From Escherichia coli (GTDB lineage: Bacteria; Pseudomonadota; Gammaproteobacteria; Enterobacterales; Enterobacteriaceae): a stretch of DNA of 219 nucleotides. A model generated the notes under the pieces. It searched no databases and was not told the origin of the DNA. It was given only the letters and a program-made list of their open reading frames with translations. The stretch lies in NCBI RefSeq assembly GCF_003334405.1, contig NZ_QOWM01000076.1; one strand, 5' to 3'. The position numbers and the translations under genes were made by a program. Numbering within the stretch: the stretch's first letter is position 1; every line of letters starts with the position of its first letter. Below are positions 1 through 219 of the stretch, in pieces.

Positions 1-1
1 G

Positions 2-77
2 TGGCGTCCCCTAGGGGATTCGAACCCCTGTTACCGCCGTGAAAGGGCGGTGTCCTGGGCCTCTAGACGAAGGGGAC
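2..77 (-). tRNA. tRNA-Glu (anticodon UUC), complete 76-nt gene with genomically encoded 3' CCA
   Basis: Reverse complement of 2-77 reads GTCCCCTTCGTCTAGAGGCCCAGGACACCGCCCTTTCACGGCGGTAACAGGGGTTCGAATCCCCTAGGGGACGCCA. It folds as a cloverleaf: 7-bp acceptor stem GTCCCCT/AGGGGAC, anticodon stem CCGCC/GGCGG around loop CUUUCAC (anticodon UUC, encoded as gaa at window 41-43), T-arm GGGG-TTCGAAT-CCCC, and terminal CCA (window 2-4). From memory this matches the E. coli tRNA-Glu found in rrn spacers (gltT/U/V/W family); which copy cannot be told from the sequence. Confidence 0.95.
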
Positions 78-162
78 GTATCAGTCTGCTTCGCAAGACG
101 CCTTGCTTTTCACTTTCTATCAGACAATCTGTGTGAGCACTGCAAAGAACGCTTCTTTAAGG
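78..162 (-). other. 16S-tRNA-Glu internal transcribed spacer (16S-proximal part of ITS1), part of the rrn primary transcript
   Basis: The 85 nt lie between the mature 16S 3' end and the tRNA-Glu 5' end. The transcript-sense sequence is CCTTAAAGAAGCGTTCTTTGCAGTGCTCACACAGATTGTCTGATAGAAAGTGAAAAGCAAGGCGTCTTGCGAAGCAGACTGATAC. Its start (CCTTAAAGAAGCG...GTGCTCACACAGATTGTCTGATAGAAAGTGAAAAGCAAGGCG) matches my recollection of the enterobacterial 16S 3'-flanking spacer. Boundaries are set by the adjacent RNA genes. Confidence 0.85.
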
Positions 163-219
163 TAAGGAGGTGATCCAACCGCAGGTTCCCCTACGGTTAC
201 CTTGTTACGACTTCACCCC
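163..219 (-). rRNA. rrs: 16S ribosomal RNA, 3'-terminal 57 nt (partial; gene continues beyond the window end)
   Basis: Reverse complement of 163-219 is GGGGTGAAGTCGTAACAAGGTAACCGTAGGGGAACCTGCGGTTGGATCACCTCCTTA, the universally conserved 3' terminus of bacterial 16S rRNA. It includes the anti-Shine-Dalgarno CCUCC (window 166-170 as ggagg on the + strand). The mature 3' end ...CCUCCUUA maps to window 163; the exact end may differ by a nucleotide or two between species. Confidence 0.97.

Follow-up and report, generated by a model that had tools for sequence, protein, structure and literature searches.

The rrn operons of Escherichia coli are divided into type-A operons, which carry a tRNA-Glu gene, and type-B operons, which carry tRNA-Ile and tRNA-Ala genes (PMC5179076). 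The labels of individual operons vary among K-12 sublines, the Glu-type operon with gltV being named rrnD in W3110 and rrnE in MG1655 (PMC5179076), so the strain must accompany any operon label taken from the literature. The 17S pre-rRNA has 115 extra nucleotides at its 5' end and 33 at its 3' end, and the sequences on either side of 16S pair into a helix that RNase III cuts (PMC3996153). Formation of active 30S subunits requires this leader-trailer helix, and does so even independently of RNase III; the helix displays two-sided covariation in 1,441 Enterobacteriaceae sequences, and its published hallmark is a long complementarity (>17-30 bp) between the 3' flank of 16S and the leader (PMC10250234). 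In addition, riRNA has been proposed as a stationary-phase transcript that spans the spacer and tRNA-Glu and arises independently of rRNA (PMC5179076).

Here we analysed a stretch of DNA of 219 nucleotides, hereafter the window. It is almost certain from our results that the window comes from inside a type-A (tRNA-Glu) rrn operon, that this operon belongs to E. coli or to a very close relative in the Enterobacteriaceae, that the window lies on the minus strand with the short-spacer allele, and that it acts as part of the rRNA precursor; no observation contradicts this. The locus is already known and the window holds nothing new.

Layout of the window and identity of its parts

The following features were assigned:

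163-219, minus strand: 3'-terminal 57 nt of 16S rRNA (Rfam RF00177 and RefSeq feature boundary)
78-162, minus strand: proximal 16S-tRNA spacer of 85 nt, short form (gap between the annotated 16S and tRNA-Glu)
116-157, minus strand: predicted trailer strand of the 16S leader-trailer helix (spacer +6 to +47, duplex prediction)
2-77, minus strand: tRNA-Glu(UUC) gene of 76 nt with encoded CCA (ARAGORN and Rfam RF00005)
1, minus strand: first base of the distal spacer between tRNA-Glu and 23S (one base past the annotated 3' end of the tRNA)

The right-hand part of the window is the very 3' end of a bacterial 16S gene, in agreement with the preliminary description, which had recognized it and proposed an Rfam search. 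The SSU model RF00177 matched positions 163-219 on the minus strand with its last positions (1477-1533 of 1533) at 56.9 bits (E 5.4e-16; gathering score 50), the 5' side of the match being cut by the window edge. These nucleotides correspond to E. coli 16S positions 1486-1542, and the end of the RefSeq 16S feature, at position 7057 of locus L001, falls on window position 163. The structure line of the Rfam alignment places helix 45 at 176-199, where a hairpin of 10 bp is capped by a GGAA loop (185-188); the same alignment places the anti-Shine-Dalgarno CCUCC at 166-170, the 16S 3' end reading ...GAUCACCUCCUUA. Segment 163-219 would thus provide the 3' end of mature 16S rRNA, with helix 45 and the anti-Shine-Dalgarno.

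The left-hand part is occupied by the single gene that ARAGORN found in the window, a tRNA-Glu with anticodon TTC at 2-77 on the minus strand, exactly where the preliminary description had put a Glu-UUC tRNA. The Rfam tRNA model (RF00005) matched 5-77 on the same strand with its full length (1-71) and a full cloverleaf (60.1 bits, E 5.6e-13); the anticodon lies at 41-43 and the 3' CCA is genomically encoded at 2-4. All 76 of its 76 nucleotides are identical to those of MG1655 gltT, gltU, gltV and gltW, each of which is annotated in RefSeq as tRNA-Glu(UUC). The Rfam scan was run permissively and only these two matches, both on the minus strand, exceeded the gathering score. The remaining rows (mascRNA, a Tymovirus tRNA-like element and the plastid psbI-rps4 3'UTR element) lie far below it and overlap the tRNA, and we rejected them; such weak rows, including those on the plus strand, are echoes of the T-arm and acceptor stem of the tRNA.

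Congruently with these assignments, megablast aligned the window to E. coli chromosomes at 219/219 identity (E 4e-110) and matched each of the 5,426 complete E. coli genomes searched (5,426/5,426), at a median of 7 places per genome. The annotation beneath the match is 'tRNA-Glu | 16S ribosomal RNA', and the RefSeq feature edges fall at 163-219 for 16S, 78-162 for the spacer and 2-77 for the tRNA. The three-part identity of the window is far above chance level. One tRNA-Glu gene located 85 nt after 16S, with the ARAGORN and Rfam matches for both genes on the minus strand, bears out what had been proposed from the letters: an rrn operon of the tRNA-Glu spacer class, transcribed from right to left, that is an ordinary housekeeping locus. 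The window is in fact a textbook E. coli-type rrn fragment.

A protein-coding role or a function on the plus strand was considered and rejected: the open reading frames span only 20-44 amino acids and overlap the structural RNAs, with no promoter-like site and no credible ORF in the window. A terminator-like hairpin was found at 93-106 on the plus strand, GCAAGACGCCTTGC followed by TTTTCACTTT, which is antisense to the rrn transcript, and the count of such hairpins is within chance (1 found, 0.3 ± 0.7 expected). On the sense strand the same palindrome forms a small spacer hairpin at about +55 to +68.

The surroundings of homologous loci complete this picture. The gene order around two 100% matches is 16S - tRNA-Glu - 23S - 5S; the match in ER1709, a K-12 derivative, is rrnE, between purH and yjaA/metA, and the match in strain E2863 is rrnC, between yieP and aspT-trpT-hdfR. 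In all six of the identical or near-identical E. coli loci (6/6), 23S and 5S lie downstream and a full 16S with P1/P2 promoters lies upstream, and the 23S gene starts 193 nt past the 3' end of the tRNA in all six annotated E. coli loci fetched. A 23S gene beyond position 1 and the body of 16S beyond position 219, which had been predicted earlier, are thus true of six E. coli contexts and would hold for the window itself by extension. The window includes neither the 23S gene nor the leader of 16S; both the operon context and the helix partner discussed below are borrowed from identical E. coli loci, and their assignment to the window is to be read as a prediction from sequence identity.

The proximal spacer in the leader-trailer helix

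Next to the 16S end lies the segment expected to pair with the leader. We folded the 180-nt leader of MG1655 rrnE as an RNA duplex against the window spacer, with 500 shuffles of the spacer as control. The duplex reached -80.4 kcal/mol, compared with -36.0 ± 4.5 for the shuffles, none of which attained that value (0/500; z = -9.9). The prediction consists of about 40 near-continuous pairs between spacer positions +6 to +47 (window 157-116) and leader positions -89 to -131, so that the window spacer and the MG1655 rrnE leader have the long complementarity by which a processing stem is recognized in print. Moreover, the predicted pairs -115:+31 and -117:+33 are offset by 2 nt, as expected of RNase III cuts. 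This register fits the published ends of 17S, which would make window 130-162 the 33-nt 3' extension of 17S pre-rRNA and would place the RNase III cut after spacer +33, between window positions 130 and 129.

The sequence of events that we propose for this locus would start with transcription from right to left, from the upstream P1/P2 promoters, within a long 16S-tRNAGlu-23S-5S precursor. Pairing between the first ~47 nt of the spacer and the leader, which lies upstream of 16S, would then give the leader-trailer helix, and RNase III would cut this helix ~33 nt past the 16S 3' end, releasing 17S pre-rRNA. Later removal of the 3' extension from 17S falls to 3' exonucleases and/or YbeY. The 5' end of tRNA-Glu is generated by RNase P and its 3' end by trimming back to the encoded CCA. 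In the window, the remaining 33 nt of the 3' extension would be removed by these other RNases, RNase P would cut between positions 78 and 77, and trimming would stop at the CCA in positions 2-4. Established here are what the three parts are and where each ends, the operon context of homologous loci, and the strong leader-spacer complementarity in the expected register; that the cleavages take place, and by which enzymes, we infer from the literature.

To see how the helix varies, five operons can be compared: the leader strand is invariant among rrnE, rrnC, rrnB, rrnG and the operon of Salmonella enterica Senftenberg, and the changes in the trailer are one-sided and keep the pairing. Among the predicted pairs, the change at +47 turns U-A into U-G and that at +52 turns U-G into U-A, and the T/A change at +15 can shift pairing to a neighbouring bulged U. 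Since the leader is the same in all five operons, this comparison adds no two-sided covariation to that already described. Between E. coli and Salmonella Senftenberg the spacer is ~98% identical, compared with 86% for clpB, a difference in keeping with a strongly constrained helix strand, to which conversion or transfer between rrn copies may have added.

Source of the window and alternative readings

The taxonomic anchor given in the preliminary description, E. coli or another member of the Enterobacteriaceae, stands: identity is 100% in E. coli and drops stepwise in its relatives. In PLSDB, a 'plasmid' collection with many chromosome fragments among its records, it goes from 98.6-100% in E. 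coli to 94.5% in Citrobacter, 94.1% in Enterobacter and 92.3-92.7% in Klebsiella, and further out to 88-90% in Proteus, 85.7% in Acinetobacter and 79.5% in Pasteurella. The match is sharper than the 'Enterobacterales-like' of that description, as it is to the short-spacer rrnE/rrnC allele of E. coli. A strict species assignment had to be softened by a rrn operon downstream of clpB in Salmonella enterica Senftenberg, which has the same architecture and is 217/219 identical (99.1%), differing at spacer +15 (T to A) and +52 (G to A). This copy lies on NZ_LN868944.1 (L010), labelled 'plasmid 2' of strain NCTC10384 (727,905 bp); since this record carries pheA-raiA-bamD-rluD-clpB and then the rrn operon, it is a chromosome fragment, and its clpB, only 86% identical to that of E. 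coli, marks it as genuine Salmonella. The 219 nt alone therefore cannot fix the species, and the cautious earlier wording was apt. That the same biology comes from another member of the family such as Salmonella, instead of E. coli/Shigella, is nevertheless very improbable. E. coli operons and strains vary among themselves to a degree comparable with the two mismatches of the NCTC10384 copy, but the exact 219/219 sequence appeared only in E. coli records in the E. coli genome and PLSDB searches, and other Salmonella, Citrobacter and Enterobacter copies are ~94% identical. A pattern of 57 nt across the 16S end and the proximal spacer, allowing two free positions, was scanned against 100,044 species at one genome each, and all sequence that it matched was E. 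coli-derived. The anchor is thus the Enterobacteriaceae, and most probably E. coli/Shigella.

The matches of that scan were three contigs, an E. coli chromosome and two metagenome-assembled genomes (MAGs) labelled 'uncultured Desulfovibrio' and 'Oxalobacter sp.', and these labels bear on the question of whether the best matches lie outside the Gammaproteobacteria, which would have spoken against the preliminary description. They do not, as both contigs are, by their identity profiles, assembly chimeras, joined through conserved rRNA, that carry E. coli rrn sequence. We rejected a non-gammaproteobacterial origin because the identity of both to MG1655 rrnE flips abruptly inside the rRNA genes and their non-rRNA flanks have no E. 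coli match. In USBZ01000017.1 (L008, 'uncultured Desulfovibrio sp.') the first 12 kb have no E. coli match and a diverged 5' half of 16S (38-93% per 100 nt) is followed by 700 nt at 100%. In JAHAYL010000010.1 (L009, 'MAG: Oxalobacter sp.'), which holds the entire window at 219/219, the E. coli match covers the rRNA segment only: from the 16S end through ~2.8 kb of 23S there are 0-1 differences to rrnE per 200 nt, apart from one block with 8, and beyond that point identity falls to 90%, 67% and 58%. The chimeric segments span 9600-13266 of L009, with the switch near the 3' end of 23S, and 11600-14492 of L008, with the switch at about mid-16S; the rRNA genes of these contigs would mislead the taxonomy of their bins. 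We also give very little credence to a source record for the window itself in which E. coli rrn sequence bears some other label, be it a metagenome contig that is chimeric or mis-binned or an entry wrongly filed as a plasmid or phage. The Oxalobacter-labelled contig is one such case, and among the 'phage' and 'plasmid' records several of 1.6-22 kb consist of rrn fragments alone, but records of this kind are a tiny minority (a plasmid location in 10 of the 37,973 places in complete E. coli genomes), and a mislabelled source would leave the sequence identity and role unchanged. A phage or plasmid origin as such was rejected, the 'phage' matches being short unannotated rrn fragments and the 'plasmid' matches largely chromosome pieces. 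As rrn is highly conserved, the same 219 nt recurs in chimeric MAGs and in mislabelled plasmid and phage records, and the database label of such a match is therefore not to be taken as its taxon.

Several observations accompany these records. The phage-collection matches H61-H66 are short and unannotated, carry the 16S-tRNAGlu segment at 92-99.5% identity and look like host or contaminant rrn fragments and not phage genomes; examples are OR844775.1 ('Escherichia phage ECO111 5-P', 5,386 bp) and OR850364.1 ('Staphylococcus phage SA 1298 Kay', 1,627 bp), and one 'Staphylococcus phage' record carries enterobacterial-type sequence. Some E. coli 'plasmids' with rrn operons measure 0.65-1.4 Mb, such as H36/H37 (655,459 bp) and H39 (1,005,770 bp), and could come from split-chromosome or engineered strains or be mis-assigned chromosome pieces. 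Outside the window, the StyR-44 family (RF01830, ~125 bits) matched L007 at 656-762, L008 at 13631-13739 and L009 at 12813-12921. In these three loci it matches the distal spacer directly 5' of 23S, hence this 'npcRNA' family coincides with the 23S leader region.

Another reading concerns transcription instead of origin: tRNA-Glu would also, or mainly under starvation, be expressed apart from rRNA, with the spacer-tRNA segment transcribed alone as riRNA from a promoter inside 16S, or from a weak promoter in the spacer. Within 16S, Takada et al. (2016) described an RpoD promoter from which transcription runs through the spacer and tRNA-Glu and for the most part ends ahead of 23S; they also cited a weak spacer promoter, Pi, in rrnB (PMC5179076). 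Were this the case here, the window would serve both as a processing intermediate and within a regulatory transcript of its own, and riRNA would keep the supply of tRNA-Glu uncoupled from rRNA synthesis during starvation. We consider it unlikely for this locus. The riRNA promoter lies upstream in 16S, outside the window, and neither strand of the 219-nt window contains a sigma-70-like promoter match; in any case this reading supplements the standard model and does not replace it. Even if true, it would be no discovery from the window, since a published proposal of riRNA in E. coli exists already (PMC5179076).

Comparison with the other rrn operons of E. coli

Read as an internal piece of a type-A operon, the window has value only as an anchor for annotation. 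The strand and direction of the rrn operon follow from it, a 23S gene is predicted ~193 nt past position 1 and ~1.5 kb of 16S past position 219, and the source of the window falls in the Enterobacteriaceae, most probably E. coli.

We aligned the window with the four Glu-type operons of MG1655 (rrnE, rrnC, rrnB and rrnG). The 16S 3' segment, with helix 45 and CCUCC, is the same in all of them. The rrnE operon (3' end of rrsE, ITS and gltV) is identical at 219/219 with the same 85-nt spacing, and rrnC (rrsC, ITS and gltU) shares the short spacer and is identical at 218/219, differing by A to G at window 116 (spacer +47). Assignment to one operon was rejected: the identical 219-mer occupies rrnE in K-12 strains but rrnC in strain E2863, and with such identical rrnC copies in other strains the sequence is compatible with more than one operon and strain. 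Of 5,433 E. coli records, 1,597 had the exact 85-nt spacer as their best match and the remainder had at least one mismatch, so the spacer is slightly polymorphic and the window carries a common allele of it.

The rrnB and rrnG operons (gltT and gltW) have the same 16S end and the same tRNA-Glu as the window, and the first ~65 nt of their spacer agree with it save for 1-5 substitutions; window position 148 (spacer +15) is T in rrnE and rrnC but A in rrnB, rrnG and Salmonella. In contrast to the 85 nt of the window, 171 nt separate 16S from the tRNA in these two operons because of an 86-nt net insertion just upstream of the tRNA, and the absence of this insertion assigns the window to the short-spacer subtype (rrnC/rrnE). 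The type-B operons rrnA, rrnD and rrnH differ more deeply, in that they carry two tRNAs, Ile and Ala, whereas the window has one tRNA-Glu. As seen in L007 and L008, which have Ile/Ala-type spacers, type-B operons have the 16S 3' end and ~53 nt of spacer, the trailer strand of the helix, in common with the window, and diverge from it thereafter.
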